From IMG/VR virus record IMGVR_UViG_3300020057_001228, positions 1 to 64,000 of that record: a DNA stretch of 64,000 bases. One strand, given 5' to 3'. Shown here piece after piece: positions 9,839-25,147 of the stretch. Source of the DNA: a virus. Taxonomy: Duplodnaviria > Heunggongvirae > Uroviricota > Caudoviricetes. Below the pieces are notes generated by a model that was given only the letters and a program-made list of their open reading frames with translations, searched no databases and was not told where the DNA came from. Every line of letters begins with the position of its first letter. The first letter of the stretch is position 1. Position numbers and translations under genes: made by a program.

Positions 9839-10024
9839 TCATCGTGAATACGACCGAACGCGTTTACTTCTTCTGGGGTACATAACGAAGCTAATGTCAC
9901 TCTGGATTCTATCGTCACCACGCGCTAAGAAGCGGGATATCCCATCACAATAGTCGATTGATCTTATGACTACCTCCACCAAAGGCTCTTGGTCGGTATA
10001 GTACATAAACATGTTTTCATCCAC
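9839..10024 (-). CDS. array small ORF
   Basis: C-term ISFVMYPRRSKRVRS. Confidence 0.3.
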   Translation of the reverse strand: MDENMFMYYTDQEPLVEVVIRSIDYCDGISRFLARGDDRIQSDISFVMYPRRSKRVRSYSR

Positions 10025-10241
10025 AACGTTTCCTCGTGGCTACTTTGAAGAGCATATAGCAAGCTACGATCTGATCCTGTATCAGTAATCTATCCTGAAG
10101 TGACCGCTTAACGGATGTATAAGCCGCTAGGTTGTTATGCAACCAGAAGCTGGCTGTGTGCACACCATAGGGACATATCTGTTCAGTGATGAACTCAGGG
10201 AAGGTACCAAAGTAGTACTGTGGCTCGTAGTGTGTTAACAC
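10017..10241 (-). CDS. array small ORF
   Basis: C-term DQIVACYMLFKVATRKR. Confidence 0.35.
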   Translation of the reverse strand: MLTHYEPQYYFGTFPEFITEQICPYGVHTASFWLHNNLAAYTSVKRSLQDRLLIQDQIVACYMLFKVATRKRCG

Positions 10242-10465
10242 CGATTCCTCGTAGCTGTTTCATAGAGTTCTCTAGCAACAAGGCACTCATCATAGGCTCT
10301 ACGGATGTAGCGTTCGTCTTTGTTGACATCTCCTATTGCTCTGTCTAGTAGGATGAACTCTTGGCATAGGAACTGTTGTAGTCCCTGGTTGGTTGCAACA
10401 CGTGCTATACAGACGGCGATAGGTCCTATATCACTGTAGAAGATGAAGCTGTTGTCTTTAGGCAT
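10235..10465 (-). CDS. array small ORF
   Basis: C-term ECLVARELYETATRNR. Confidence 0.35.
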   Translation of the reverse strand: MPKDNSFIFYSDIGPIAVCIARVATNQGLQQFLCQEFILLDRAIGDVNKDERYIRRAYDECLVARELYETATRNRC

Positions 10466-10782
10466 CGATGTTTACCTGTTTGGTACACAACCCACGCTGC
10501 GTACGTCTGAGTGTAGATAAGGCTATAGTTATCCTTTAAGCTGTCCCACTTACCCCACAGAAAGTCTGCGTTTGAGCCAGCTAGGTGAGCCCAGTGGTAT
10601 ATATCATGCAACCTATGGGTAGCTCTACCACCTATCCACTCGTGATCTGTGCCATACTCAGGTGCTATGAGAAGAGTACTTTTTAGCTGTACGGTAGATA
10701 GTTCTCGCAACGTAGCAGTGTTGGAGTAAGGCGTTGATTTTGCTTGCACCGAAACCTTCTTCACCCACTCTCTCTTGTACAT
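10426..10782 (-). CDS. hypothetical (118 aa)
   Basis: Minus ORF overlapping neighbours. Confidence 0.3.
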   Translation of the reverse strand: MYKREWVKKVSVQAKSTPYSNTATLRELSTVQLKSTLLIAPEYGTDHEWIGGRATHRLHDIYHWAHLAGSNADFLWGKWDSLKDNYSLIYTQTYAAWVVYQTGKHRCLKTTASSSTVI

Positions 10783-10897
10783 TTCGGTCTAGGTAGTACA
10801 TCCAGGTGTACAAGAATCTAGACTTATCAAGACACACGCTAACCATCATGTAGGGTGTGATCCAGTTCTTCAAAAGAGGCCAGAGTGCTCTGCCCAA
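10658..10897 (-). CDS. array small ORF
   Basis: C-term LLQHCYVARTIYRTAKKY. Confidence 0.35.
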   Translation of the reverse strand: MGRALWPLLKNWITPYMMVSVCLDKSRFLYTWMYYLDRNVQERVGEEGFGASKINALLQHCYVARTIYRTAKKYSSHST

Positions 10898-11382
10898 CTA
10901 CCCCATACGTTGTACACTGTCTTCTCTTTAGACTTAGCGTAGTCGATACAGTTAGTGGTACCGCCAGGTCTACCAGACCATAGAGCTAGGATGATGTTGG
11001 AATGATCAACGATCCAGATGTTTCGGATCTGAAGCTTCTCACCAGAGTATCCACCGGACGAGGTATAAGCTACCTCAGCGTACTCACATAACTCAACGTG
11101 TCTACGCAGCCAGTAGGGACCCCAATTGCTACCGTGGCCCTCGAAAGGTATGGCAGCTACTAAAGATATACTTAGGTTCTTAGCTGCTTGAGCTAGAGCC
11201 ATATCCCAACCCAAAGCCATACCACTGATGACTTTGGATGGGGCAAGACTTTCTAAAGACTTAGTAGCAAGAGCTACCAGCCTGTCAAACACGAGATCCG
11301 AATAAGGATCAATGGTCCCAGGAGGGATTAGACCGCCTGGTCTATGTCCCGTCCCGCCCAGTATCAGAGTCTCTTGTGACAT
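10870..11382 (-). CDS. DUF1273/YoqJ-like (SLOG-type Rossmann) protein
   Basis: LILGGTGHR...ISGMALGWDMALAQAA...AAIPFEGHGSNW resembles YoqJ-family signature. Confidence 0.5.
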   Translation of the reverse strand: MSQETLILGGTGHRPGGLIPPGTIDPYSDLVFDRLVALATKSLESLAPSKVISGMALGWDMALAQAAKNLSISLVAAIPFEGHGSNWGPYWLRRHVELCEYAEVAYTSSGGYSGEKLQIRNIWIVDHSNIILALWSGRPGGTTNCIDYAKSKEKTVYNVWGSWAEHSGLF

Positions 11383-12580
11383 TCATCCTCTGCTGTATCT
11401 CTTTTAGGAAGCCTAGAGGGTCATCAACATGCTCGATGGCAATCTCTTGCACATGAGCCATGCTTAGGCCAGTATCATCAGACCTCAACATGCCACCCTT
11501 CTTATCTGGATAGAAACGTTTGTACATCTCCATCACCTGATATGAGTTAGCGTTGCTGAGTTCCATCTTGATATCAGCTCTACCTGGACGTATTAATGCA
11601 GGGTCTAGCTTCTCAGGATGATTTGTAGTCATCACAAAGATCCTACCCTCAGGTGCACCTAGTCCATCGATAGCGTTGAGTAGACCACCAAAGCTGATCT
11701 GCTGGTGTTCCTTGTTGGTAACTACACGTCCCTCAAAGATGGTATCGATCTCTTCGAATACCACGATAGAGTTCTCGTTAGTTGTAGCCACGATGTCCAT
11801 TAGCTTAGCGTCTGTGAGTTCCTGGTCAGCTAGGTTCACGATGTGAACATCAGCTAACAGGTGAGTAGCCATGACGAGGATAAGAGAACTCTTACCATTA
11901 CCAGGTTCACCATGTAGTAGGTAGCCACGCTTCCAGGGTATACCCATCCGTAGGTACCAGTCTCTACGTCTCTTGAATGTATCCAGATCATCCAGAATGC
12001 TCTGCATCTGTCCTTCTTTAAGGACTAATGTCTCAGGTGGTCTGAATGATTTAGCGCACGCGTCGGACCAGTGGTAGCCATTGTAGGCCATTACCTGGAT
12101 GCTAGTCTTCTCGCTGACTCTATGAGAACGATACATGTCCAACACCAAGTCATAGACCATCTGACGTGTTCCACCAATCGTTGATAGACTGATAGTTTCG
12201 ATCCATGCATTGTGTTTCAGTCCTGACGTAGCACTCTTCTCACGTGACCTGACCATCCAGAAGAATCTTCCCTTGTAGGTGAAGAAGTGGAAGCCAGGTG
12301 CTGGAGATAGTTTGATGATGGGGTCAGCTGCATCAGAAGGACCAGAGATAGCCGTGATAGTCACAGCCTTGTTCTTGTCTGTACGGATGTTCTGGTCCAT
12401 CCAGCTTTGCATCCAGTAGAAGACGTTATCCTGGTTCGTGATATCGATAGTGGTGATGAATCTGTTACGGCCTATACCAGCTAGATTGCTAAGCGTATCC
12501 TTAGCTGAACTAAGAATTGCATTCAGCACGACAAGAGCTGCACCACTAGTCAGGAGTGTATTGCTGAATGGATCGATCAT
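11342..12580 (-). CDS. BCS1-like AAA+ ATPase
   Basis: GIPWKRGYLLHGEPGNGKSSLI (Walker A), IVVFEEIDTIF (Walker B) with BCS1-N-like N-terminal region. Confidence 0.8.
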   Translation of the reverse strand: MIDPFSNTLLTSGAALVVLNAILSSAKDTLSNLAGIGRNRFITTIDITNQDNVFYWMQSWMDQNIRTDKNKAVTITAISGPSDAADPIIKLSPAPGFHFFTYKGRFFWMVRSREKSATSGLKHNAWIETISLSTIGGTRQMVYDLVLDMYRSHRVSEKTSIQVMAYNGYHWSDACAKSFRPPETLVLKEGQMQSILDDLDTFKRRRDWYLRMGIPWKRGYLLHGEPGNGKSSLILVMATHLLADVHIVNLADQELTDAKLMDIVATTNENSIVVFEEIDTIFEGRVVTNKEHQQISFGGLLNAIDGLGAPEGRIFVMTTNHPEKLDPALIRPGRADIKMELSNANSYQVMEMYKRFYPDKKGGMLRSDDTGLSMAHVQEIAIEHVDDPLGFLKEIQQRMNVTRDSDTGRDGT

Positions 12581-12876
12581 CCGACTAGTTCTTCTGCAGC
12601 GTTATGAAAGACAGATGCTGCCAGCTCGTTGTGTACAATCACACACATCATCGTAACTGTCAGCGCAAAGGTGTCGAGGAACTGATGGAACTCAATCTTC
12701 TCAGTACCCTGTACGACAGGCCTCAGTTCTTTGCTGAGTATATTGATGAGTCGCTTCATCAGTTCAGGGTTAGGTAGGTCAGCCAGCTTCTGCATAAGAG
12801 GAGCGTAGTCTGGAGTGTTGGCTGTTTGGGAGACGCAGCTTAATAGCTGTCGAAGATCGTCGGGTTTGAAACTCAT
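12577..12876 (-). CDS. hypothetical (99 aa)
   Basis: ATGA coupling. Confidence 0.4.
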   Translation of the reverse strand: MSFKPDDLRQLLSCVSQTANTPDYAPLMQKLADLPNPELMKRLINILSKELRPVVQGTEKIEFHQFLDTFALTVTMMCVIVHNELAASVFHNAAEELVG

Positions 12877-13076
12877 ACTGCTGCTCCATTTAAGAGACTG
12901 ACCAATGCTACTTCTATTTGCTCGTGCGACATCTCACCGCTATCATAAGCGTCACTGAGATCAGCTAACTTCTCATAACGCTTATTAGCGTCCTCTAGAG
13001 CCCCGCCTACAGAGTCCATCACAAAGGAATGTGTGAACTCATAAGCACGAGCAGATGTGAAGCATTCGTGTTGCAA
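12873..13076 (-). CDS. hypothetical acidic (67 aa)
   Basis: Minus ORF. Confidence 0.35.
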   Translation of the reverse strand: MQHECFTSARAYEFTHSFVMDSVGGALEDANKRYEKLADLSDAYDSGEMSHEQIEVALVSLLNGAAV

Positions 13077-13126
13077 CGTGTATTCCTTCTGTATCGGAAG
13101 TCCTCCAGGGACCCTCAGAGAAGGTC

Positions 13127-13444
13127 TTACTCTGGAGATATCAGGTGATCCTGATTCTTAGGTCTACCAAGCTTGTAGCTGTCATACATAAAGACTACGC
13201 ACTCGGCAAACTCACAAGCTAGTTCTGTCTCAATTTCTGTCTCAATGCGGTGATAGCCTTCCAGCACTCTGTTGATGTAGGGCACTACGAAGATAAGTTG
13301 CCACGAGCGGATGTCGTCCAACGTCTTCTTGCTGAACTGACGAGCATCTCTTATCCAAGACGAACTTGTAGACGTCGAAGCAGTAGTCAAGTGCTCTTGT
13401 GTAGATAATGAGCTCGTCATCCCCAATCCTCTTGTCTGCTTCAA
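13127..13444 (-). CDS. hypothetical; overlaps 13242..13571 in another frame
   Basis: C-terminal half protein-like, N-terminal half low-complexity. Confidence 0.25.
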   Translation of the reverse strand: MKQTRGLGMTSSLSTQEHLTTASTSTSSSWIRDARQFSKKTLDDIRSWQLIFVVPYINRVLEGYHRIETEIETELACEFAECVVFMYDSYKLGRPKNQDHLISPE

Positions 13445-13571
13445 ATCTACTTATCAGGATCTTTGTATCCATCTCTAACCTAGCTATAGGTAGCCGAGGC
13501 GAGTGGCGTCTAAAGCTACCTATTAGAGACGGGTAGCTTGTCTCTGTTGATCTGTCTCTTGATACGTACAT
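13242..13571 (-). CDS. array small ORF (motif DELIIYTRALDYCFDVYKFVLDKR, then junk-like tail)
   Basis: Possible frameshift with 13127..13444. Confidence 0.3.
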   Translation of the reverse strand: MYVSRDRSTETSYPSLIGSFRRHSPRLPIARLEMDTKILISRFEADKRIGDDELIIYTRALDYCFDVYKFVLDKRCSSVQQEDVGRHPLVATYLRSALHQQSAGRLSPH

Positions 13572-13746
13572 TGGTCCAGCACTCGTGTAGATATGTGGTG
13601 TATATGAACTCTAATGGAGAGAAAGCCATGCTGACGTCCCAGTCGAGTCTCTTGAGTATGCCGATAGCCTCTTTGAGGTTGTCTAGGGCTATCACTGGAA
13701 TGATACCTTCCCTAAGAGCCTGATAGCCTAGCTTGTCTTTCAGCAC
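13516..13746 (-). CDS. array small ORF
   Basis: C-term YTTYLHECWTNVRIKRQ. Confidence 0.35.
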   Translation of the reverse strand: MLKDKLGYQALREGIIPVIALDNLKEAIGILKRLDWDVSMAFSPLEFIYTTYLHECWTNVRIKRQINRDKLPVSNR

Positions 13747-13906
13747 GTAATCTCCTCGTCAACATGTAACAGTCACGTAGGTATTTGAGACCGCAATGGT
13801 GCCTAGCTTTGAAGACCATACCTACAGGCCACGGGTTGCTCGGTCTGGTGGCTCTATAGAGCCACTCTTCTAGGTCATAGAGGATATCCAGTGGACTTAG
13901 TTCCAC
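13712..13906 (-). CDS. array small ORF
   Basis: C-term DCYMLTRRLRAERQAR. Confidence 0.3.
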   Translation of the reverse strand: MELSPLDILYDLEEWLYRATRPSNPWPVGMVFKARHHCGLKYLRDCYMLTRRLRAERQARLSGS

Positions 13907-14204
13907 GTAATCTCCTCACGACATGGTATTGAACATGGAGTTCTATGGAGTACATCCATATGGTTGCAAACTGGGTTGGTGGGTAGTGTTTAGGTCTAGA
14001 CTCTTCTGTAAGCTCGATAGCTACATTGATACTAGGTCCAGCAACCCAGCGGGTGAATACCTTAGGCTCCCACCCTGATATGGAACCACCAGACACATGG
14101 CACTCGATCCTACCAGCCTTCAACTTTATCCTGATGTCAGGAGTAAGCTGGACTTCAAACTCCGATGGGATCTGACAACGTTCCATTGCGCCCTCATAAC
14201 ACAC
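13875..14204 (-). CDS. array small ORF (W-M-Y subfamily)
   Basis: C-term TIWMYSIELHVQYHVVRRLRG. Confidence 0.35.
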   Translation of the reverse strand: MCYEGAMERCQIPSEFEVQLTPDIRIKLKAGRIECHVSGGSISGWEPKVFTRWVAGPSINVAIELTEESRPKHYPPTQFATIWMYSIELHVQYHVVRRLRGTKSTGYPL

Positions 14205-14446
14205 GAGTACAACCAGATTGAAGCCAGATACTCTCTTGGGTATTTACTATCATCATAGTTACGTAAACCCTTCTCAAGAGCTTCTAGTGCTATAGGTGTC
14301 TTCCAGTCCCAACTACCCCCGTCACTACTCCAAAAGGAACACCATTGAGGGCTTAGAGTTACTGTAGTAGGACCTATCTTTGTCGTGAAGCACGACGGAA
14401 TCTCACGGTATTCCACATCATCCTCACTCCATGGGCATACATCCAT
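14126..14446 (-). CDS. array small ORF (W-M-Y subfamily)
   Basis: C-term SIWLYSCVMRAQWNVVRSHRS. Confidence 0.35.
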   Translation of the reverse strand: MDVCPWSEDDVEYREIPSCFTTKIGPTTVTLSPQWCSFWSSDGGSWDWKTPIALEALEKGLRNYDDSKYPREYLASIWLYSCVMRAQWNVVRSHRSLKSSLLLTSG

Positions 14447-14676
14447 ACGGTTGCTAGGTACGACAGATCGTACTTACCACTGGAGTCTGGATACTGATGC
14501 TTGTGAGTACACTCGTTGATTGACTCTAATGGGTCAAAGGTGTCTCTAGGATCACAGGACCATCTCTCAACGTGACTATCAGATACACCAGAGTCAAGAT
14601 TGGCACGATAGATATCCCTGTAGAAGCCTACAGTGACGACGCCATGCCCATTGGAGAATTTCTCTTCAAAGTGCAC
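14374..14676 (-). CDS. array small ORF (W-M-Y subfamily)
   Basis: C-term TVWMYAHGVRMMWNTVRFRRA. Confidence 0.35.
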   Translation of the reverse strand: MHFEEKFSNGHGVVTVGFYRDIYRANLDSGVSDSHVERWSCDPRDTFDPLESINECTHKHQYPDSSGKYDLSYLATVWMYAHGVRMMWNTVRFRRASRQR

Positions 14677-14971
14677 GGCGCTTGTGACTCCTTACCAATG
14701 CAGCTCTAGCTACGATGACGTCGATGTACATATGCCACCACTGCATTGGGTTATCTACCGATACATAAGTTCTATGGTTACGTTCTACACTGTTCAATGT
14801 CTTAATGAAATGTTTAACGACTACTGAGTCGTATACATCACGTCTGTATTCACGCTTGTTGTGTATTACGGTGACGTGGTCTGCTGATACTTCGATGTGC
14901 CACTCCGCGAGCAGGGGATCTCTATGGACCCCCAACTCTAGGACTGAGTTACTTGTCGCCGTGGTAGTCAA
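14666..14971 (-). CDS. array small ORF
   Basis: C-term WWHMYIDVIVARAALVRSHKRR. Confidence 0.35.
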   Translation of the reverse strand: MTTTATSNSVLELGVHRDPLLAEWHIEVSADHVTVIHNKREYRRDVYDSVVVKHFIKTLNSVERNHRTYVSVDNPMQWWHMYIDVIVARAALVRSHKRRAL

Positions 14972-15188
14972 GGATGGTGCTCAGCACAGCCAGGTCGATG
15001 GTGCGCTTGGCTACTACAGCATTCGCCTGATCGATCTTGACGTTCGTAGCACCCATCATGCCTTTGATCACTTCAGGCTTAGCCAGCTCTAACCCATCAT
15101 CCGTCAGAGTGATGACTTCAACTCTCTGAGGCAGGGGAACTAGCTTCAAACCGGTGATGGAGCTGATGAGCTTCTTGAGAAATTCCAT
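14949..15188 (-). CDS. hypothetical (79 aa), not of the motif family
   Basis: Clean ORF with balanced composition. Confidence 0.4.
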   Translation of the reverse strand: MEFLKKLISSITGLKLVPLPQRVEVITLTDDGLELAKPEVIKGMMGATNVKIDQANAVVAKRTIDLAVLSTILDYHGDK

Positions 15189-15591
15189 TGGTGTTTCCTT
15201 TTAGTGATCTTCTGTTCCTAACGATGTTCCATGTGCACCGAAGCCACATCGCTTCGCAATAGATATATGGAGGGTAATAGGTGGTGCAGTTAGGCTGATT
15301 AACATCAACCTCGATAGCATGGCCTATATGCTGGACTATCCTGGTGCTGTCGTTCACCGTTATGGTGTGCACCTTACTCCATATAACTAAGATCACTGAG
15401 AAGCCTGTATGCTCCCCCTGTGCGTTGTAATCGTATCCAATGGATAGCAATTGATCAGGACGTGGGGAAGCTTCATAGCGCTCACCTAGTGGGATACTGT
15501 GCCTTTTGATATACGGTACAGCGCTCTGCATAAGTTGGTGTCCTCTAGTACACTGTGCCAACTGTGGTTGCTTCCCCTTACCATGGCCCAT
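15118..15591 (-). CDS. array ORF (motif CEAMWLRCTWNIVRNRRS internal)
   Basis: W-M-Y subfamily motif; 3' end overlaps next gene. Confidence 0.3.
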   Translation of the reverse strand: MGHGKGKQPQLAQCTRGHQLMQSAVPYIKRHSIPLGERYEASPRPDQLLSIGYDYNAQGEHTGFSVILVIWSKVHTITVNDSTRIVQHIGHAIEVDVNQPNCTTYYPPYIYCEAMWLRCTWNIVRNRRSLKGNTNGISQEAHQLHHRFEASSPASES

Positions 15592-15698
15592 AGCCAGTCT
15601 GCACAGCTGTACAGCAGGGCTGGACCAGTACCGAATACTAAGGGGTTACCTATGCTGGCTGCTGTGTAGGCTTCAAACAGTGTTAGTGGATCTCGCAA
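15486..15698 (-). CDS. array small ORF
   Basis: C-term DTNLCRALYRISKG. Confidence 0.35.
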   Translation of the reverse strand: MRDPLTLFEAYTAASIGNPLVFGTGPALLYSCADWLWAMVRGSNHSWHSVLEDTNLCRALYRISKGTVSH

Positions 15699-15876
15699 TC
15701 TTAAGTAGCTCCCTAGCCAACACGATGTCTTCTAGCATGAGTTGTCCTGCCTGCCCAAAGCCTTTAACACGTGGTGGGCTGTGAGCAACAGAGTTAATAT
15801 AGGCAAGACCCTGGAACATTGATGGGCTGCTATTGTTACCATCAGTGTAGCCCTTGAAGAGCTTTACTGGTCCCAT
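15673..15876 (-). CDS. array small ORF
   Basis: C-term DIVLARELLKIARS. Confidence 0.35.
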   Translation of the reverse strand: MGPVKLFKGYTDGNNSSPSMFQGLAYINSVAHSPPRVKGFGQAGQLMLEDIVLARELLKIARSTNTV

Positions 15877-15973
15877 GATAGCTTCCTGGCTAACTTAAAG
15901 AAGCCATAGCATAACCACAGGTCATCCTGAGTACCTTGACCTACAGTGCCATCAAACTCTTCTACAGCGCACT

Positions 15974-16246
15974 CTATGATGAAGGAAGGCATGTAGAGCG
16001 CTGTGATCTGGAAGTCGTCATTGAAGACCATATCAGATGACCAAGTAGTGTGTCGTCATAGACAATGACCATATCCTCAGGTTCCAAACTGGCGTGATGT
16101 ATCTTGCTTCTAAGTACCCTTGTGAACTCATAGAGAGCTGTGATGTCAGGGTACTCTTTGGTGTACAGCTGCAGCAGCATTACTGGAGCTATGTGTGGAC
16201 TGTCTGGATCGTCTCCATAGTACGTTACAGAGTTGGACGTCGTCAT
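15974..16246 (-). CDS. array small ORF
   Basis: C-term DDTLLGHLIWSSMTTSRSQR. Confidence 0.3.
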   Translation of the reverse strand: MTTSNSVTYYGDDPDSPHIAPVMLLQLYTKEYPDITALYEFTRVLRSKIHHASLEPEDMVIVYDDTLLGHLIWSSMTTSRSQRSTCLPSS

Positions 16247-16415
16247 AGATGTACTCGTACCCTCGCTTAGTCATAGCCTTACCAAAGTTCTCTATAGTTG
16301 TGGTGATACCACCCAAGATAGATATCGATCTATATAAGGCTTCAACCTTGTGGAATGACACAGAGTCATTGTGCTGAGCTAAGAGAGCAGCAGGCTCTTT
16401 GTAGTAGGCCGCCAT
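16146..16415 (-). CDS. array small ORF
   Basis: C-term DDVQLCNVLWRRSRQ. Confidence 0.35.
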   Translation of the reverse strand: MAAYYKEPAALLAQHNDSVSFHKVEALYRSISILGGITTTIENFGKAMTKRGYEYIYDDVQLCNVLWRRSRQSTHSSSNAAAAVHQRVP

Positions 16416-16582
16416 CTAACACCATATTCCATACATGCGTATAGGAAAGCTATATCAGCCAAACCATGATCATCGACATGCCCATCGCTGACTTGGCCAC
16501 CTAGACAATCACACATACTCTCAATGTCTTCACCCTTCTGGGTTTCTAGAATGTCTCGTACGAGAGTACTTATAACCATCAT
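16379..16582 (-). CDS. array small ORF
   Basis: C-term FLYACMEYGVRWRP. Confidence 0.3.
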   Translation of the reverse strand: MMVISTLVRDILETQKGEDIESMCDCLGGQVSDGHVDDHGLADIAFLYACMEYGVRWRPTTKSLLLS

Positions 16583-16695
16583 ACAATAACCTCACACCCC
16601 TGATGAACGGTACATTCTCAAACGCGAAGCTTATCTTCATGCGGCAAGCTTGCTTGAACACTGGGTGATCGATCAGGTGTGCCCCTGATGCATGT

Positions 16696-16968
16696 TCAGG
16701 TGAGAAGACGTCGCCTCTTTCTTATTGCAAAGAAGTTGATCCATAGAAAGCACACGTTGGTGTAGATATGCTTCAACTCACTCTTGGTTGTAAGCGGGTA
16801 GTGATTGAAGCTACAGTGATCTAGTATCTCATGGACCGAAGAGCGGATACACCTAGCTACACCTTCAGTTCTCCACTTGTCCACGTGCTTTGTATTCCTA
16901 CGTGCTTTGAGTAGCTCGTTTACTACGGTGTCTGGCAGCTTGTCGTCCATCCCATAGAGCTCTGGCAA
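16696..16968 (-). CDS. array small ORF
   Basis: C-term NVCFLWINFFAIRKRRR. Confidence 0.35.
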   Translation of the reverse strand: MPELYGMDDKLPDTVVNELLKARRNTKHVDKWRTEGVARCIRSSVHEILDHCSFNHYPLTTKSELKHIYTNVCFLWINFFAIRKRRRLLT

Positions 16969-17149
16969 CTAGAGCTTCCTCCCTTATAGTTGGGTAGCTG
17001 ATTGTCCGAGCGATGTTCGTTCGGTAACTAATGACACTATCGTGAGCACGCTTCTGTAAGGCTTCTACAGCCCTATAGATAGCACGCGCATAGATACCTT
17101 TGTAGTAGTGCAGATACAGGTCAAGATAGTGTGCTTGTTCGTCTGTCAC
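16898..17149 (-). CDS. array small ORF
   Basis: C-term EEALVARALWDGRQAARHRSKR. Confidence 0.35.
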   Translation of the reverse strand: MTDEQAHYLDLYLHYYKGIYARAIYRAVEALQKRAHDSVISYRTNIARTISYPTIREEALVARALWDGRQAARHRSKRATQST

Positions 17150-18092: not shown

Positions 18093-18113
18093 GATGATTC
18101 CCTCGTTAGATTG

Positions 18114-18401
18114 CTACTTATCCATTTTAACACGTTTACGGATCCGTAACAGATCCCTAGCAGTCCTAGATGCCCTGTATAGGTATACGAACCAGTCATC
18201 CTGATCGAAGCGACTATCTTCATAGAAGCCTGCTTCAATAGCTGAAGCTATGACCGATACAGGTTTGTACACGTCACCTACTGGGTCTTTGTAGAACTCA
18301 CTAGGTGCATCAAGTAGTTGACTTCTAGTGTTAAATCCGAATGCTGCTGCTAACTTAGTGAGAACCATGCCGCTTAGCAACTGCAATCCTGTAAGCTTCA
18401 T
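18114..18401 (-). CDS. array small ORF
   Basis: C-term DDWFVYLYRASRTARDLLRIRKR. Confidence 0.35.
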   Translation of the reverse strand: MKLTGLQLLSGMVLTKLAAAFGFNTRSQLLDAPSEFYKDPVGDVYKPVSVIASAIEAGFYEDSRFDQDDWFVYLYRASRTARDLLRIRKRVKMDK

Positions 18402-18597
18402 GCATGAACCTCGTCATGGTGTAGGTGTGTGCGTACTTCAAATGCCTACTATCGTGACCACTCTCTATACCGAGGACGTATAACCTACAACGATCTGCAT
18501 GGATATACAGGCCTTCCAGATGCATGACTCTAATGCGACTCCACCAGGTCCCCATGATGAACTTTGCGGTTTCTAATTGCGAGGTTGTAGCTCTCAT
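18355..18597 (-). CDS. array small ORF
   Basis: C-term FMHEAYRIAVAKRHG. Confidence 0.3.
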   Translation of the reverse strand: MRATTSQLETAKFIMGTWWSRIRVMHLEGLYIHADRCRLYVLGIESGHDSRHLKYAHTYTMTRFMHEAYRIAVAKRHGSH

Positions 18598-18895
18598 TCA
18601 GGTACTCCATGCACTGATATAGATACATGCACTGATATAGATAATCGAAGTGCATACCTGGACCAAACCCAAGCGGACTACCTACCTCTCCATTGAGGAT
18701 ACGGATGTTCTTTCCGCAGATTTCTATAACAACGAATGGACCGTAGTCTGGGTCCTTCTTAGCATGTAGCCAATCTATGTCTTTCGGAGTGGACAAGTTT
18801 ATGAACCTCGTGTAAGTATTCAATGCATTGGTAGAGCCAGAGTTGGTAAGGCTGATCGATCCTATCGTTCTGTATATCGTTGATGTTATTACCAC
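18530..18895 (-). CDS. array small ORF
   Basis: C-term EYLNESYNLAIRNRKVH. Confidence 0.3.
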   Translation of the reverse strand: MVITSTIYRTIGSISLTNSGSTNALNTYTRFINLSTPKDIDWLHAKKDPDYGPFVVIEICGKNIRILNGEVGSPLGFGPGMHFDYLYQCMYLYQCMEYLNESYNLAIRNRKVHHGDLVESH

Positions 18896-18971
18896 AGATC
18901 CAAACGATAGTATGAACAGATTGAGGATGGTTCTCAGCGTTCAGCCAGCTTATGTCTTTTGCTATATGCAT
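18759..18971 (-). CDS. array small ORF
   Basis: C-term CIEYLHEVHKLVHSERHR. Confidence 0.3.
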   Translation of the reverse strand: MHIAKDISWLNAENHPQSVHTIVWICGNNINDIQNDRIDQPYQLWLYQCIEYLHEVHKLVHSERHRLATC

Positions 18972-19158
18972 ATGCGTGATGGAGTCTCTCTGCGAAGCTG
19001 ATGGTGATGAAGATAGACATACGTGAGACTAGACAGGTATTGGGGTTATTATCCCCAACTGGCCAATAGTCAAACCACCGTGTCGCATGCCATATACTCA
19101 GGATGAAGTCACAGTTCTCTCTTGGGACTCTGTGGTACTTTAGATGCTTTGAAGACAT
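18934..19158 (-). CDS. array small ORF
   Basis: C-term SFAERLHHAYAYSKRHK. Confidence 0.3.
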   Translation of the reverse strand: MSSKHLKYHRVPRENCDFILSIWHATRWFDYWPVGDNNPNTCLVSRMSIFITISFAERLHHAYAYSKRHKLAER

Positions 19159-19351
19159 AGTGTAATCTCTCCGCCAGAGCTAACGTATAACGCACACGTA
19201 TGTCGTATTGCTTGTACGTTGGATCTAAGTCCTCTTCTGTAAGGAAGTTGAACCAAGCGTATGCTACGTGGGGGTAGTAGGATGATGGAGATGTATCACC
19301 CCAGTCGTTAGCCATCAGGTTATCGTACTTGAGCTCTGTCTTTAGTGGCAT
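19109..19351 (-). CDS. array small ORF
   Basis: C-term TLALAERLHYVFKASK. Confidence 0.35.
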   Translation of the reverse strand: MPLKTELKYDNLMANDWGDTSPSSYYPHVAYAWFNFLTEEDLDPTYKQYDIRVRYTLALAERLHYVFKASKVPQSPKREL

Positions 19352-19553
19352 ATCTATAGCCTACTCTCAACACATGGATGGCACGATAGATAGTCCAACC
19401 ATCATTACCGTAGAACTGTATACCCCACATACCCTCTAAGTTGATACGACTGGCTAATCTAGCTACATCCCATATCCAACGACGATTGCCAACAGGTATG
19501 TCGCACTTAGGGAACCTTGGGTAGGCGAACCAGTACTTCTTCTTCCTACCCAT
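19320..19553 (-). CDS. array small ORF
   Basis: C-term TIYRAIHVLRVGYRYATKDR. Confidence 0.35.
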   Translation of the reverse strand: MGRKKKYWFAYPRFPKCDIPVGNRRWIWDVARLASRINLEGMWGIQFYGNDGWTIYRAIHVLRVGYRYATKDRAQVR

Positions 19554-19734
19554 CGTGGAAAGAGAGACAGGCGAGAGTAGCTAACGGTATACTGAAGCCA
19601 GTGACAGTCAACCAGGTAGCTACTCCCCAAGAGATGAACGTCGAGATACTGATCATAAAGGCACACAGGATGATAGACCCCTGCATAAGCCTGATACTGG
19701 TCATTTCGACCTTAGAGTTCTTTTCGTTAGCCAT
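19546..19734 (-). CDS. small membrane protein (62 aa, two TM helices)
   Basis: Hydrophobic segments. Confidence 0.35.
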   Translation of the reverse strand: MANEKNSKVEMTSIRLMQGSIILCAFMISISTFISWGVATWLTVTGFSIPLATLACLSFHDG

Positions 19735-19852
19735 GCGTCCCTCAGTCTTCTTATCGTTCCACCACAGACTACGATCCCTTCTTTGACCTTCACCAGAGTT
19801 GCGAATGGTCGTATGGAGAGGGCCTTAACTGGGGCGTAGAGTATCTTAGGAT

Positions 19853-20482
19853 TTAACACCTAGCTGCCCTTAGCTGCTGTAGTGATTGCTGCGCTGAGGT
19901 ATGCAGGATACCAATACCACCAATGTTATTCCATTGGTCGATGTTGATCTGCATGTCATCGATCAGGACATCCTGAGGTGAGTAGCAATGGTACTGCTTG
20001 TCCATAGCAAAGGGTCCGAAGCGGACTCTAATCTGTGGGTGGATATGCTTACGTGCCCACTCGACCTTGTGCTGAACAGCATCAGGGAATTGCAGACGAG
20101 CACGACGAGGAAGAGCAGTGAGGATCTGAACCTGGTTACGATCCCCAGTGAACTGACAGCAACCCTCGTACAACTCCAGAGCGTCTGGCATAGGAGCAAG
20201 CATCTCGTAGATACTGGGATAGGCAGAGAAACGTCCCCATTCAGGTAGCTTGATCTCTTCCTTCCAAGTACTCCCAAAGAGCTCTAGGCCCTTGGCATCA
20301 AAGTCTGCTAGGACACCATCCATGTCCAGGTAAATGATGGACTTGTTGCCACGCTTGACCAGATCCATCTGAGCCAGAATCAACGTGTTCCTGGTCTTAA
20401 CCAGCTCGTCTTGTAGCTTCTTATTAGCTACCTGTTCATCTGCTAACTTGCCCTCAAGTTGGTGCTTTGTGTAGAAGCTCAT
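19853..20482 (-). CDS. second 5'(3')-deoxyribonucleotidase-like HAD protein with N-terminal coiled-coil extension
   Basis: IIYLDMDGVLADFD motif. Confidence 0.7.
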   Translation of the reverse strand: MSFYTKHQLEGKLADEQVANKKLQDELVKTRNTLILAQMDLVKRGNKSIIYLDMDGVLADFDAKGLELFGSTWKEEIKLPEWGRFSAYPSIYEMLAPMPDALELYEGCCQFTGDRNQVQILTALPRRARLQFPDAVQHKVEWARKHIHPQIRVRFGPFAMDKQYHCYSPQDVLIDDMQINIDQWNNIGGIGILHTSAQQSLQQLRAARC

Positions 20483-20738
20483 GTGTCCCTCGTAGTCTAA
20501 TAGCGTATAGGTAACGTAACCGTGAGTGTCTGAGATGCCTCATCACATCTAGATGTACATCATGACCAGCGAGTGCCTCCCCGATAATGACACCACAGTC
20601 CCACTGGAACGCACTCTCAATCGCATACGCAGGGTTATACACAGAGATGTATGACCACTCTGTGTAGACTCGCCAATAGATATAGATCTCTAGAGGCCCT
20701 GCATAGCTGTAGGACTGCGGGGAAGCGTGTGAGTTCAT
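20454..20738 (-). CDS. array small ORF
   Basis: C-term RLRYLYAIRLRGTH. Confidence 0.3.
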   Translation of the reverse strand: MNSHASPQSYSYAGPLEIYIYWRVYTEWSYISVYNPAYAIESAFQWDCGVIIGEALAGHDVHLDVMRHLRHSRLRYLYAIRLRGTHELLHKAPT

Positions 20739-20894
20739 TGTGTGGTATCCAGAAGAGAGCGTCGTGCAAACTAATGCTTGCTGAGTACATCAAGGGTACC
20801 GTCGATGATAGCCACAAAGAACCTCTTGAGCTTATGTTGGCTCATGAGACGATGTGCGATAGGGAAGTGCTTGATGAAGGTGTCGTAGGCTGCC

Positions 20895-21167
20895 TTAGCT
20901 AGGGCTAGGACCACTTTGTCCTTCGGTGTCAGGCTTGTCTTCATTGGTGATTTTCCTACTGTGAATAAGCATGTGTACTCTAGCCCACAGGGTCATAGGT
21001 CTACCCATGAACTCACGAGGGACACCGTACGAGTCAAGTTTATCATGAGCATCAATGATCTCTGTAAACATACGAGCGTTGTTACGTTCTAGAGTTGCTA
21101 GATCCTTCTTTGCTACAGATAGGTTACCTAGTAGTGCTGCTATGACTGGATTGTTCTCTTGGACCAT
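20895..21167 (-). CDS. hypothetical (90 aa)
   Basis: Clean ORF. Confidence 0.35.
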   Translation of the reverse strand: MVQENNPVIAALLGNLSVAKKDLATLERNNARMFTEIIDAHDKLDSYGVPREFMGRPMTLWARVHMLIHSRKITNEDKPDTEGQSGPSPS

Positions 21168-21282
21168 TTGACCCTCTGCATTCGGTATGCTTTATGCAAT
21201 CGATACATGAAACGCATGAATACAGGTTTGTCACTCGGCATCCATACGTGTATGTAGAAGATCATACCTCTATATGGGTTCT

Positions 21283-21678
21283 TCATCGACTAATCGAATA
21301 TAGCAAATGACAGAGATCAATGTCTTCTCTTAAGATGTTCCAGTCTGGCACTCGATCATCCTGGATCTCACGCGTCTCGATCATCTCATCTAACCATGCA
21401 GCACCTGTGTACACAGAGCCATATAGGTTACCACGATCACTATGTACATCCGTGACACCTGTGTTGTAGTACTTTATCAGGGTGACTGGATCCATCATCT
21501 TATGTCTTCTGGATCGTCTGTAGACAAAGTTTGCTAGACGAACAGCAGCTTCTAGTTCTGGAACAACGAACACAGCCTTAGGCTCAGCGTTGGTGATCTG
21601 CCCAAAGGCACAGATGTGTAGGTTGATCATCCATGTGGTGTAGAGACCAGCACCAGGTAGTTCTCTCATTGGGATCAT
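21283..21678 (-). CDS. array ORF
   Basis: C-term EDIDLCHLLYSISR. Confidence 0.35.
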   Translation of the reverse strand: MIPMRELPGAGLYTTWMINLHICAFGQITNAEPKAVFVVPELEAAVRLANFVYRRSRRHKMMDPVTLIKYYNTGVTDVHSDRGNLYGSVYTGAAWLDEMIETREIQDDRVPDWNILREDIDLCHLLYSISR

Positions 21679-21863
21679 GGTTTAAACCTTGAATAGAAGA
21701 AGCGTAGGATATCTGCAGCTGAATGAAACCTACCCCACTCTTCCTTAGACGGCACACTAAGTAGGAAGTGGCCATGCGTAGCCCCGTCGAGGGCCCTAGC
21801 TATTACCACAGGCTTGAATCTAAACTCAGCAAAGAACGTAGCCGTTGCATCATACTCGTTCAC
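21675..21863 (-). CDS. small ORF, paralog of 21860..22048
   Basis: C-term DILRFFYSRFKP; ATGA coupling. Confidence 0.3.
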   Translation of the reverse strand: MNEYDATATFFAEFRFKPVVIARALDGATHGHFLLSVPSKEEWGRFHSAADILRFFYSRFKP

Positions 21864-22048
21864 TTACGGAACCTCACGACTACTAAGCGGAGTGCTTCAA
21901 CAGCTGCTAGGAACCTGATCCAGTTGTCTCTAGAGGGGAGTCGTTGAATCGAGTAGTTGCTGGTGATGCCACGCTCTACAGCAGTTGCGAGATCTATCGC
22001 ATTACCTCTAAAGTCCAACAGTATCAGTCTCGCTGCATCAGGCATCAT
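21860..22048 (-). CDS. small ORF, paralog of 21675..21863
   Basis: C-term VEALRLVVVRFRK. Confidence 0.3.
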   Translation of the reverse strand: MMPDAARLILLDFRGNAIDLATAVERGITSNYSIQRLPSRDNWIRFLAAVEALRLVVVRFRK

Positions 22049-22217
22049 TTCCTATACCCCAAGCTAGCTAGACGGAAGACTGTGATTGCATACTCAAACC
22101 TATCCCACGTGGCTGTTGGGTCCCAGTGATGAGTTGAGTAGTTCAAAGCTGTACCTAGTCGTCTTGTACATGAGCCGAACTCAACTAAGATGGCATGCGA
22201 ACCGTGGGGCAGCCTAA

Positions 22218-22526
22218 TCATCTTCTACCAATCTTGAATAGCTCATAAGCTAACCTGAAGTCCTCAAAGTACATGGCAATACCGTTCACCCAGACACCTA
22301 TGCTCACGTTGTCTGTAGATATTCCACCCTCACCTGCAATCAGGTGGACAGGCATGTAGATAGCGTCTATGGGCCACCTATACCGCCATATGATTGGGTG
22401 TGTGAATCTACCTTCTGTGTACTCAGCTATCAGTACGTTTGGAGGAGTGTTTGACAGATCCACGTATCCTCCACAGCTCTGCACATAGGTTGGTATCCTC
22501 AAATAGGAAGTCCCAATCTTTGTCAA
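22218..22526 (-). CDS. array small ORF
   Basis: C-term EDFRLAYELFKIGRR. Confidence 0.35.
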   Translation of the reverse strand: MTKIGTSYLRIPTYVQSCGGYVDLSNTPPNVLIAEYTEGRFTHPIIWRYRWPIDAIYMPVHLIAGEGGISTDNVSIGVWVNGIAMYFEDFRLAYELFKIGRR

Positions 22527-22824
22527 TCAGGGGATCTTCCTCGTTTGGGGTATCGATCTTCCCCACAATACTCTCAGCCTCATTGTTAGCGTACATAGAG
22601 GCTCTATAGACCCTATCCTGGACTTCTACCTCACCATAGTAGCCCTCTATGTACATGTGGTACAGGTAGTGAGGGTTTCTAGGTGGGTTGACTATTCTAT
22701 CTGGTGCGGGCATGTCATCCAACGTTGAGGAAAGCCTTAAGGATCTTCTCGGCAACCTCGTCTTTAAGATCGGTGAGTACCATACCTGGCGTACGTTCAT
22801 CGAAGTCATCTTTGGGAGCCGCAA
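22423..22824 (-). CDS. array ORF
   Basis: C-term EDTNLCAELWRIRGSVKHSSKR. Confidence 0.35.
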   Translation of the reverse strand: MRLPKMTSMNVRQVWYSPILKTRLPRRSLRLSSTLDDMPAPDRIVNPPRNPHYLYHMYIEGYYGEVEVQDRVYRASMYANNEAESIVGKIDTPNEEDPLIDKDWDFLFEDTNLCAELWRIRGSVKHSSKRTDS

Positions 22825-23089
22825 CAGTTACCTCGATGTCTTTGAACTTGCCTGTGATGACGATAGTAGTGCCCTCGATCTTCTCTTCGTAGAGAACCTT
22901 AGGGACCATCACGCGTGTCATCAGGCGGACAGCATAGCTAATCTTCTGTGATTCACTCAAGCCCATGTCTTCTTCGTTCCCTTCGTCCAAGAACACGTCC
23001 GTGCACCTGGTATAGCGTGTAACAGTAACCATGCAGATAGGTTGAATCCAACCAGCGGAACGTTGAGTCCGCGTGCATAGGATTATCAA
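22715..23089 (-). CDS. hypothetical (start probably internal)
   Basis: C-terminal half protein-like. Confidence 0.3.
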   Translation of the reverse strand: MIILCTRTQRSAGWIQPICMVTVTRYTRCTDVFLDEGNEEDMGLSESQKISYAVRLMTRVMVPKVLYEEKIEGTTIVITGKFKDIEVTVAAPKDDFDERTPGMVLTDLKDEVAEKILKAFLNVG

Positions 23090-23144
23090 GCTTTTTAGTC
23101 ATACGCTCTACAGTATTGGGAACTGAGAACTCACTAAAGGTCAT
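22953..23144 (-). CDS. hypothetical small (63 aa)
   Basis: Minus ORF. Confidence 0.25.
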   Translation of the reverse strand: MTFSEFSVPNTVERMTKKLDNPMHADSTFRWLDSTYLHGYCYTLYQVHGRVLGRRERRRHGLE

Positions 23145-23153
23145 TAGAGGTAC

Positions 23154-23405
23154 CTAGCATGCCCTAGAGTCCATGTCTAATATGGCTCTGGTGTGTCTGG
23201 ACCTTCTTCTAGAATAAGAGGCCTTGTAGGCCACGTGAAGAGTTCTAAGTGATCTGTGGTATATGACATAGATAAACTCACCCTCTATGTTGCTGCCACT
23301 GTAGATCAATTGAAGCACTCTCGATGCTTCCCAGTAGAACGGGTTAGATGAGGGAGGGACTAACCGTTGGCCAGCCGTCTCTTCGAAGAGATATATCTTG
23401 TGCAT
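23154..23405 (-). CDS. array small ORF
   Basis: C-term LRTLHVAYKASYSRRRSR. Confidence 0.35.
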   Translation of the reverse strand: MHKIYLFEETAGQRLVPPSSNPFYWEASRVLQLIYSGSNIEGEFIYVIYHRSLRTLHVAYKASYSRRRSRHTRAILDMDSRAC

Positions 23406-23644
23406 TTACGTATTTCCCATAGGAGGTGAACGATGCGTATGTCCACACTGATGTTCTCAGGTTCTTCGAAGTCAGGCATCATGTGCTCTAGCATTTTGGC
23501 TGAGTAGTAAACCACATCAGCTATACTGCCACGCCTAGACCCATTAGCTACCAGGCTTGTGTCCGCGAGGAATAGGTTTATGGCACACTCAGTGTCTGTT
23601 TGGTCAACCGGGTCGTGCATGAAACCCTCCAGTAGATATAGCAT
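23360..23644 (-). CDS. array small ORF
   Basis: C-term DIRIVHLLWEIRKCTRYISSKRR. Confidence 0.35.
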   Translation of the reverse strand: MLYLLEGFMHDPVDQTDTECAINLFLADTSLVANGSRRGSIADVVYYSAKMLEHMMPDFEEPENISVDIRIVHLLWEIRKCTRYISSKRRLANG

Positions 23645-23826
23645 AGGACAATGTCAGTGTACGCATCGCCACGCAGGATGGGGTATTCGTACTTGAGGTA
23701 ATCAGATAGGAGAACTGCTGGTTGATACGCAGGATGATGTATACCAGCTGAGTTCTTAGCTAGCCAATTAACGTGGTCTGTTGCTATAGCCTCAGTCAGC
23801 CACTCGTCACTTACACCTAATCGCAT
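23578..23826 (-). CDS. array small ORF
   Basis: C-term DIVLCYIYWRVSCTTRLTK. Confidence 0.35.
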   Translation of the reverse strand: MRLGVSDEWLTEAIATDHVNWLAKNSAGIHHPAYQPAVLLSDYLKYEYPILRGDAYTDIVLCYIYWRVSCTTRLTKQTLSVP

Positions 23827-24065
23827 TTGCTTCTCCTGAAGTACAGGTACAGGATGGCAATGTCTAGGAGTGTGTGTTTCTGTTCACCGTGGAGGTAGGT
23901 TTCAGCGTAACCACCTGAGTTGTATGGATCTTTGTACCACTCCCTGAAGGTTATCTCAGCAAGTGCGACGTACAGAGCTTCTACGATGCCATAACTGAGA
24001 GCTGTGTCACATGTCTGGTCTTTGATCACTAGGGCTAGAGCTCGTACGAGCAGCTCGGGTTGCAA
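23817..24065 (-). CDS. array small ORF
   Basis: C-term DIAILYLYFRRSKCD. Confidence 0.35.
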   Translation of the reverse strand: MQPELLVRALALVIKDQTCDTALSYGIVEALYVALAEITFREWYKDPYNSGGYAETYLHGEQKHTLLDIAILYLYFRRSKCD

Positions 24066-24348
24066 GGCGTATCCTCCAGAGTAAGTGTGTTAAGGCTGTG
24101 TCGACTATGAGTCGTATGTGAATACGTGGCCCGTAAGTTATGCTATCGACTGCCCTGAGGCTATCACTAATTTCATTGCAGCAAACGAACAGCGCTGCTG
24201 GTGTGTCCTGTGAGTTGTCTCTAGTGTCTAGTTCGAACAGGATGAGTGCATCAGCTTCTAAGTTAGCATCCATGCTTAGCCACCTTGTAGAGTCTGTGCG
24301 AGGTGATGATATCGATGAAGAACTCGTTCTTCTGCTTGCTGGTTTCAA
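24007..24348 (-). CDS. array small ORF
   Basis: C-term DTALTHLLWRIRLATRAAR. Confidence 0.35.
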   Translation of the reverse strand: MKPASRRTSSSSISSPRTDSTRWLSMDANLEADALILFELDTRDNSQDTPAALFVCCNEISDSLRAVDSITYGPRIHIRLIVDTALTHLLWRIRLATRAARTSSSPSDQRPDM

Positions 24349-24490
24349 ATGGCCAACACTCTGTTACGTCGTACTCAACCATACTGGCTGCTACATAGGG
24401 TGGTTCTATTCCTCCACCCGTAGCTCTTAACTCACGATCGTTATCACTGATCCAGGTCTCATCAGACTTGAGTAGGTCTTCAGCGTCCAT
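24263..24490 (-). CDS. array small ORF
   Basis: C-term DIITSHRLYKVAKHGC. Confidence 0.35.
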   Translation of the reverse strand: MDAEDLLKSDETWISDNDRELRATGGGIEPPYVAASMVEYDVTECWPFETSKQKNEFFIDIITSHRLYKVAKHGC

Positions 24491-24887
24491 GAGCTAACCT
24501 TAGGAACTCTCTGCACATGATGATCTCTGATAGGAGGTCAGGTGTTACTGAGAGTAACTTGATCTCGTAGTCGAGGATGCGTGCTGGGTTGTAGACAGCT
24601 TCGTGTGGCCCCCAACCTATCTCACATGTGCCTGCTGTGTCTGTTAGGAGGTTGCCAACCATCCGACGTCTGCTGCTGATGTGCTTGAAGGCTGTGTGTA
24701 GTCTGATGAGGTGCTGGTAGTTGAAGTAGGTGTGGTGGAACTCTTTGCCAGGTATGCCTCTGGCTTCAATGAGGGTGTAGTAGATGTTGGTTAGAGATTG
24801 GTGGAATGGATATCTGTCTCTGTTGAAGCGGTTGTTGGTAACGATGGCGAACCCACTGGTTGGGAGTATGTTGTACGTGTTTGCCAT
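24480..24887 (-). CDS. array ORF with two motif copies
   Basis: LIRLHTAFKHISSRRR internal and IIMCREFLRLAHGR at C-term. Confidence 0.35.
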   Translation of the reverse strand: MANTYNILPTSGFAIVTNNRFNRDRYPFHQSLTNIYYTLIEARGIPGKEFHHTYFNYQHLIRLHTAFKHISSRRRMVGNLLTDTAGTCEIGWGPHEAVYNPARILDYEIKLLSVTPDLLSEIIMCREFLRLAHGR

Positions 24888-25147
24888 CGTTGCCTCTTTG
24901 CTTTGTAGCCTGTGTGGAGCGTATGGAGTGCCCAGAGGCGTATGGTTTCGATTAGTTCGACTTCAAGGATTGTGTATTTGCCTATGCCAGTAAAGTCTCC
25001 TTTGTTTTTACCTTCCCAGCTGTAGACGTAGTGGCAGAGACTGAAGAAGGTTTCGTCGTCTGGTCTGTAGTAGTCAGGCTGATAGATTGCTCTGTAGGTG
25101 TGGATTATTGATGGCGGCATTGTTTTCTCTTTGCCTAAAAATCGCAT
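24791..25147 (-). CDS. array ORF, first gene of the array
   Basis: ELIETIRLWALHTLHTGYKAKRQRW motif; immediately downstream of AT-rich promoter region. Confidence 0.35.
   Translation of the reverse strand: MRFLGKEKTMPPSIIHTYRAIYQPDYYRPDDETFFSLCHYVYSWEGKNKGDFTGIGKYTILEVELIETIRLWALHTLHTGYKAKRQRWQTRTTYSQPVGSPSLPTTASTETDIHSTNL

Follow-up and report, generated by a model that had tools for sequence, protein, structure and literature searches.

Overlapping small genes in an accessory region of a large uncultured phage: a probable mosaic of tandemly duplicated families

Does a long run of small genes on one strand of a phage genome represent a single protein family, as the similar C termini of its products seem to suggest, or several families that have come to look alike? 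The question is raised by a stretch of 64,000 nucleotides (nt) from the virus record IMGVR_UViG_3300020057_001228 (Caudoviricetes), here called the window, in which positions 9040..25147 of the minus strand are tiled by ~61 small open reading frames (ORFs) of 43–137 amino acids (aa) and four recognisable enzymes. The initial annotation took more than 40 of these small genes to be paralogs sharing a conserved amphipathic, basic C-terminal motif. The reading favoured here, with moderate confidence, is a different one: the array would be a mosaic of tandemly duplicated, fast-diverging families, arranged as a translationally coupled polycistron with dual-coded gene ends and encoding diversifying host-interaction effectors.

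Coding evidence and family structure of the array

ORFs of at least 45 aa cover 98.9% of the minus strand between 9040 and 25147, compared with 33.8% of the plus strand and 44 ± 5% in shuffled sequences. This bears out the contiguous minus-strand block of small ORFs, and the conventional enzymes said to be interspersed in it, namely a BCS1 AAA+ ATPase, a YpsA/SLOG protein (equivalent to DUF1273) and an NT5C nucleotidase, were all located within the block. Its description as a large and unusual expansion of small ORFan genes, sited in an accessory region, is likewise supported. Scans of all 61 small ORFs against Pfam and PHROGs v4 returned one isolated weak match per library and no family common to the members.

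It is highly improbable that the small ORFs are mostly spurious, having arisen by chance in non-coding or decaying DNA, with wrongly placed starts that give rise to apparent overlaps. Such an explanation could draw on codon-usage scores near zero for many of the small ORFs, on the lack of database homologs and on the gene caller of record. The latter was evaluated between 9040 and 22580 on L001, a Logan contig of 26.8 kb that matches window positions 1342-22580 at 100% identity and therefore reveals no population variation; it left 15 gaps of at least 100 nt, amounting to 3.2 kb of uncalled array sequence, in which 20 of 55 ORFs reside. However, clear paralogs of called genes are among the skipped ORFs, which were probably passed over because of a limit on overlap length, and the strand coverage is more than twice that of shuffled sequences. 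Moreover, paralogy is detectable at the protein level without DNA similarity, and the same families and layout recur in L002, a contig from a related phage whose enzymes are ~50% identical. Standard gene callers may miss about one third of the genes in arrays of this kind owing to their overlap-length limits.

The size of the motif-bearing family was examined with a retrieval test that had been set beforehand. A hidden Markov model (HMM) of the motif built from nine clear members recovered only two more genes above decoys (shuffled and reversed sequences), and iteration converged at 12 genes. Two forms of the motif were also modelled, with the last 45 residues of every ORF in the window and L002, block-shuffled decoys and 262 control ORFs. 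The DF-type model (named for two groups of genes described below) retrieved 13 window genes and six L002 genes, and the LVARELY-type model retrieved four window genes and nine L002 genes, with one L002 gene in both sets and 0 of 262 controls passing in either case. The largest family thus comprises ~17 of the 61 small ORFs (55–100 aa; 13 DF type and four LVARELY type), so that the initial figure of more than 40 paralogs overestimated it about 2.5-fold. The remaining ~44 ORFs, the proposed W-M-Y subfamily among them, were not retrieved, and the supposed outlying members at 1998-3622 gave no score with the motif models.

These results largely refute the view that more than 40 array genes form a single superfamily, their variable N-terminal parts being joined to a shared amphipathic basic helix at the C terminus that would target them to one partner or compartment; we regard it as unlikely. 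Many C termini do look alike by eye, with a hydrophobic or aromatic stretch followed by K/R, and a full-length iterative profile search places array genes above globally shuffled decoys, single linkage joining 44 of them. This 44-gene cluster falls to 19 when the decoys are shuffled within 10-residue blocks, which indicates that the wider resemblance is one of composition and not of position. When a Gibbs motif is cross-validated with subfamilies taken into account, only a weak signal remains: among held-out genes, 19% reach p<0.05 compared with 5% expected, and in 57% the best site lies within 20 aa of the C terminus compared with ~32% expected. By contrast, the motif HMMs recover no more than 12–13 genes plus the four of LVARELY type, and profile–profile comparison (hhalign) leaves all pairs of families at the level of reversed controls, with the exception of the DF and LVARELY types.

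General amphipathicity was not found either: across the array the mean hydrophobic-moment z score of the C termini is 0.13 relative to shuffles, z exceeds 1.64 in 10% of genes, and the window of highest moment lies near the C terminus in 17 of 60 genes, where 13 are expected. The amphipathic basic motif is not supported as a common targeting module, and a membrane-targeting C-terminal helix of the MinD/FtsA type, for which a high hydrophobic moment would be required, was rejected. The basic and aromatic features on which a common targeting module had been proposed coincide instead with the Shine–Dalgarno sequence of the next gene, its start codon and the out-of-frame read-through that follows, as set out below.

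All-against-all phmmer comparison defined, among others, groups D (16415, 22722, 15698, 15876 and 21678), F (24273, 16180 and 23620) and H (10465, 10024 and 10897). Groups D and F can be aligned convincingly from end to end and are merged here as the DF family. Its members share an N-terminal block (M-x-D-P-x-x-L-F-x-x-Y-T), a middle block (A-L-Y..A..L) and the last helix [ED]-D-[TI]-x-L-C-x-x-L-W-R-I, which for the whole ~17-gene family widens to [ED]-D-[TI]-x-L-[CA]-x-x-L-[WY]-[RK]-I. In the H type the last helix takes the variant form L-V-A-R-E-L-Y, and hhalign gives a suggestive link between the two types (P=8e-4 over 77 columns). The seven motif examples quoted initially are all real, and all belong to DF.

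The DF genes, like the other array genes whose coordinates follow, lie on the minus strand. A run of four occupies 23360..24273 (24007-24273, 23817-24065, 23578-23826 and 23360-23620) and a run of five occupies 15486..16415 (16146-16415, 15974-16246 with a 101-nt overlap, 15864-16031, 15673-15876 and 15486-15698). Two more are found in 22218..22722 (22423-22722 and 22218-22463), and a weak member at 18114..18401 scores 8.6 bits, barely over the decoy threshold. The remaining DF module forms part of a 131-aa ORF at 21283..21678 that resembles an in-frame fusion, one module ending in ...FVYRRSRRHK and the DF module following from MMDPVT at 21498; the best relative of this ORF is L002 1479-1730. 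H-type members are found at 16898..17149 (...REEALVARALWDGRQAARHR) and, between the SLOG and DPBB genes, in 10017..10897 (10658-10897, 10235-10465 and 10017-10241), with the related ORF 9839-10024 alongside.

Several further small families, mostly of adjacent genes and with two to four genes each, emerged from the same comparison. The W-M-Y group, or family B, is real and has four members in 13875..15531 (15118-15531, 14374-14676, 14126-14416 and 13875-14186), two unrelated ORFs (14949-15188 and 14666-14971) being interposed in the run. It had been described as a subfamily of the main family, with which it has no detectable kinship (hhalign DF–B, P=0.09). The AlphaFold model of DF consists of three helices and is all-alpha, whereas that of B has four beta strands and two helices. 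Both models are of low confidence (predicted local distance difference test (pLDDT) scores of 69 and 62.5, respectively, from shallow alignments), and the difference in fold between these two largest families, which speaks against a single family, is accordingly tentative.

Family C consists of three adjacent paralogs of 58–62 aa with 4-nt overlaps (21863, 22048 and 22221, within 21675..22221). Families A (18759-18971 and 18530-18796) and E (19109-19351 and 18934-19158) are adjacent pairs within 18530..19351, and the second gene of family A carries a perfect 18-nt tandem duplication at 18608-18643 that is translated as YLYQCM-YLYQCM and constitutes the only trace of recent duplication in the array. 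In family I (13516..13906), another adjacent pair (13712-13906 and 13516-13746), each gene has an AGGAG sequence and a GTG start inside the upstream gene. Family G comprises 24791-25147 and the N-terminal half of 24480-24887 (together 24480..25147), as well as 23154-23405 and 21140-21286. The ORF 24480-24887 looks like an in-frame fusion of two modules (…HISSRRR, then MVGNLL… at 24662), and its start at 24887 overlaps the upstream gene by 97 nt. In both putative fusions, this one and that at 21283..21678, an internal helix-plus-basic end stands directly before the Met of the second module. Similar genes thus lie next to one another on the same strand, as tandem paralogs do, in families A, B, C, DF, E, H and I.

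Gene overlaps and the two roles of the C-terminal motif

Of the 64 junctions in the array, 58 overlap, and 40 do so by at least 20 nt and by up to 101 nt. The start/stop overlaps of ATGA type described initially are present at seven junctions; most of the others have these longer overlaps instead. Shine–Dalgarno and start codon are embedded in the upstream ORF, as in coupled overlapping operons: G is enriched at positions -11 to -8 before starts, and GGAGG or AGGAG occurs at a spacing of 4–9 nt in many junctions. Conserved RNA structure at the junctions was not detected (0 predicted pairs).

Four observations argue that the long overlaps are real. The conserved N-terminal block of DF is encoded within overlaps. 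For five genes every possible start codon overlaps the upstream gene, with minimum overlaps of 19–40 nt. The SLOG gene overlaps BCS1 by 41 nt at its start, and its N-terminal GGTGHR sits in the 30 residues that would be lost if the next possible start (11292) were used. Finally, the independent gene caller of the record places overlaps of at least 20 nt at 10 of 35 junctions in the array, compared with one of 18 in the neighbouring region, and the 3.2 kb that it leaves uncalled hold clear paralogs of called genes.

In six of nine DF genes of the window, the next gene starts 34–41 nt downstream of the base that opens the motif, and the W-R of the motif, encoded by TGG-AGG, yields GGAGG 4–7 nt upstream of that start. 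At the start at 22463 (minus strand), for instance, CTG TGG AGG ATA CGT G reads L-W-R-I-R in the upstream gene and provides both a GGAGG and a GTG start for the next. In L002 the next ATG lies 28–43 nt past the start of the motif in 10 of 13 members and is often formed from codons of the motif itself (CTA TGG, TAT GTC, AAT GNN). The residues lying over the start codon at window junctions are correspondingly restricted: x-W (9), x-C (8), Y-x (5), H-x (5), N-x (7) and R-G/A/V/D from CGTG (9). In the W-M-Y family, the conserved second W codon holds the start of the next gene (ATG TGG, CAA TGG). Exactly over codons -5 to 0 ahead of the next start, the frequency of K/R climbs from 0.12 to ~0.3, and AGG makes up 53% of Arg codons there compared with 20% elsewhere. 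In the tails beyond, AGA dominates the Arg codons, as it would if the acidic GAN codons of the next gene were read one base early.

A similar arrangement was observed in L003, a contig of 36% G+C from an unrelated phage whose BCS1 is 40% identical. This phage has its own small tandem paralogs beside BCS1 (14731-15259, 16514-17222 and 13533-13930), with overlaps of 25–34 nt and a conserved C-terminal Trp codon that provides the next ATG (xxA TGG) in six of eight junctions.

Given these coincidences, the motif might have no meaning for the protein and simply be the translation of a conserved initiation region (Shine–Dalgarno sequence, spacer and start) copied with each duplication. The GGAGG contained in TGG-AGG would fit this explanation, as would the recurrence of an ATACG(N)(A)ATG-like spacer in both phages, the use of ATA at four of six Ile positions of the motif (compared with 11% of Ile codons in large genes) and the Trp codons of L003. 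It is nevertheless improbable. The D, L, C/A and L columns lie 10–25 nt upstream of the Shine–Dalgarno sequence and vary synonymously (TTA, TTG, CTA, CTC and CTT for L); the helix is kept where the next start is elsewhere (15698, 16415 and 21498, the last with a 4-nt overlap); and the N-terminal and middle blocks are common to the family as well. A DNA-repeat origin of the motif was rejected, there being no direct repeats of at least 18 nt beyond chance-level pairs, and the motif is in this respect not an artefact of repeated DNA. Synonymous variation in the Leu, Asp and Cys columns points to constraint at the protein level on the D, L, C/A and L positions that make up the helix's first two thirds. 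A conserved C-terminal helix in the DF and H types, kept in many copies by the related phage L002, is thus one part of the original claim that is supported.

Taken together, the small genes are most readily explained as several tandemly duplicated, very fast-diverging families rather than one, with the last third of the DF helix and the basic tail being dual-coded. The W-R codons also serve as the GGAGG of the next gene, whose start follows a few bases on and is often assembled from W, Y, C, H, N or R codons of the gene before it (xxA-TGG, TAT-Gxx, xxA-TGC, CGT-G). From there the preceding gene continues out of frame through the N terminus of the next until a stop is reached, which gives rise to the variable, unconstrained S/T/R/K-rich tails and to the overlaps of 20–101 nt. 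The block would be made as a long polycistronic RNA and its genes translationally coupled through the embedded start regions.

Several points weigh against this explanation. Long annotated overlaps are often start-site errors, and the Shine–Dalgarno enrichment is partly circular, since start codons were chosen partly by the presence of such a sequence. About 25–30 ORFs are singletons whose kinship to the families is undecidable, and the low confidence of the DF and B models has been noted above. We infer early timing, polycistronic transcription and translational coupling from the sequence, and searches of Pfam, PHROGs, PDB sequences, BFVD and PDB folds gave no direct support for a function.

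Relatives of the array and its possible role

Homologs of the DF family are scarce in databases. Searches of its profile against 5.8 billion proteins (word-indexed) and 1.84 billion representatives (exhaustive) found only the phage itself and P0008, a 1347-aa protein in which the motif matched 12 times. P0008 was rejected as a homolog because it is the translation of a tandem satellite DNA repeat (…IYMDLGLCNVYFRYLRS…). Comparison of two family members with 50,697 phage records by tblastn gave nothing, as did megablast of the region against the same records at the nucleotide level. An IMG/VR pattern scan with BCS1 found no match, and neither a sequence search of the PDB nor a Foldseek search of the DF model against BFVD and the PDB gave a match below E=0.6.

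Relatives surfaced only through synteny. L002 was found via its BCS1 ATPase (52% identity) and is laid out in the order small-gene array, BCS1, SLOG, DPBB, UDG and NT5C. Its small ORFs carry the same last helix (LEDTWLCRDLVRLRRR, LEDTRYCVELIRIRNG, YDEMLVARELYVISKRD and WNDALVYRSLYVISRR), with 14 motif-bearing ORFs in 13 kb. Anchor proteins of the window and L002 match with 455 bits (BCS1), 181 (DPBB), 114 (SLOG), 90 (a 147-aa ORF) and 81 (12577-12876), whereas family members reach at most 22 bits, and their best partners are found partly in their own phage and partly in the other. Compared with the enzymes (114–455 bits), this indicates that the family is older than the split of the two phages, is still duplicating and evolves far faster. 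In this one relative copy number varies as well, the number of ORFs between conserved anchors being different.

These anchors include four non-family small genes with clear L002 orthologs: 17649-18092 (90 bits), 12577-12876 (81 bits), 12873-13076 (17 bits) and 20771-20944 (17 bits). The first encodes the conserved 147-aa protein (17649..18092), and the adjacent genes 12873-13076 and 12577-12876 (12577..13076) have their orthologs directly upstream of BCS1 in L002. The small-gene content between the anchors varies.

That the proteins are host-interaction effectors, acting in takeover or anti-defence and diversifying by duplication, fusion and rapid sequence change, is suggested by their context, that is, by analogy with SPO1-like clusters and by the accessory-gene neighbourhood. 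The host-takeover module of Bacillus phage SPO1 consists of 26 clustered small early genes (PMC6873191). Like it, the array is a contiguous, same-strand set of dozens of small phage-specific genes without conserved domains in an accessory region, with a presumed role in host remodelling or inhibition. The two differ in that the block described here is two to three times larger and has genes chained by overlaps of 20–100 nt; they also share no sequence relationship (61 ORFs against Pfam and PHROGs; two members by tblastn against 50,697 phage records). Genes of the SPO1 module are largely unrelated to one another, whereas at least half of the array genes belong to tandem paralog families. If the array does encode host-interaction effectors, it would be a rich source of new inhibitors.

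The tandem lpl cluster of Staphylococcus aureus offers a parallel for the junctions: there, the unit of evolution runs from the 3' part of one host-interaction paralog into the 5' part of its neighbour (Tsuru & Kobayashi 2008, PMC2568036), and a conserved central DNA segment drives recombination, the junction including an intergenic spacer (PMC2568036). In the array, too, the junction appears as a linked unit in which C-terminal helix, Shine–Dalgarno sequence and start, and conserved N-terminal block are contiguous, but the genes overlap without a spacer and residual DNA identity is absent.

Coupled operons in phages and bacteria are dominated by overlaps of 1 and 4 nt, with the Shine–Dalgarno sequence inside the upstream ORF and reinitiation by local ribosome scanning. 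The embedding of downstream Shine–Dalgarno and start in upstream coding sequence, together with the seven ATGA-type junctions, is common to such operons and the array; in the latter, by contrast, overlaps are mostly of 20–101 nt (40 of 64) and systematic across paralogs, and the codons of conserved residues in the preceding protein repeatedly supply the start. 'Accordion' expansions of viral host-range or anti-defence genes, such as that of poxvirus K3L, are recent and consist of near-identical copies. Tandem duplication followed by divergence, and copy number that varies between relatives, are seen here as well, but these copies diverged long ago and are close to saturation (at most 22 bits).

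A bolder extension seems quite unlikely, namely that the ~17-member family and its at least 14 L002 relatives form an unseen effector superfamily in which the last helix docks a common partner and variable N termini confer specificity, while the chain of overlaps acts as a dedicated ribosome hand-over along a 16-kb message, the conserved Trp and Arg codons serving both protein and ribosome. The BCS1-like AAA+ translocase encoded in the array would be a candidate for the common partner; small-gene arrays adjoin BCS1 in all three contigs (window, L002 and L003).

More generally, a conserved 'protein motif' in packed viral genes can in part be a translation signal in another frame, which calls for caution when families in phage dark matter are assigned by motif, and the main family described here represents an unexplored, fast-evolving gene pool in its lineage of large phages.

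Genomic setting and further features

The window sequence is also present on a 198,800-bp JGI contig, and the phage is an uncultured one of ~199 kb. A capsid-like protein (60966-62066) shares ~30% identity with the major head proteins of two phages, Ma-LMM01 of Microcystis and one of Microcoleus, and so hints at a kinship with cyanobacterial phages. A Mu-type portal is encoded at 53914-55599. The region 9040-25147, with its minus-strand small genes and four enzymes, is best explained as an accessory arm of this large phage.

The four enzymes, all on the minus strand, are an NT5C 5'-nucleotidase (19853..20482) with an ortholog in L002, the BCS1-like AAA+ ATPase (11342..12580), the YpsA/SLOG (DUF1273-like) protein (10870..11382) and a DPBB (RlpA-like) protein (9311..9688) with a hydrophobic N terminus that, judged by eye from the sequence, resembles a signal peptide. 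UDG (8360-9016) lies beside the block, and a second NT5C, DnaJ, Band_7 and NADAR lie to the left of the array. The accessory neighbours are thus related to nucleotides or stress: NT5C (twice), UDG, NADAR, DnaJ, Band_7, SLOG and BCS1.

At the head of the block, a minus-strand non-coding stretch of 198 nt (25148..25345; 61% A+T) contains TATATAAGGTATATATAATACT and is its putative promoter. The AT-rich region noted initially is therefore present, but its promoter character gained no support from a scan for sigma-70 promoters and terminators, in which no enrichment was seen and sigma-70 sites were fewer than in shuffles.

Codon choice differs between array genes and large genes, ATA making up 34% of Ile codons in the former and 11% in the latter, and AGA 36% and 15% of Arg codons, respectively. 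The 62-aa product of 19546-19734 has a strongly hydrophobic core (…SIILCAFMISISTFISWGVATWLTVTGFSIPLATLACL…) and is probably a small membrane protein. Elsewhere in the window, minus-strand ORFs of 2933 aa (44437-53238) and 1236 aa (33517-37227) belong to no Pfam family, the larger giving a single sub-threshold PLD-like match. Finally, a 119-nt gap at 17530-17648 contains an 8-bp stem (GAGCTACA…TGTAGCTC) without a T run; at the matching position in L002 (6387-6420), after the ortholog of the 147-aa gene, a textbook terminator is found (GCCGCC-AGGA-GGCGGC-TTTTTT).

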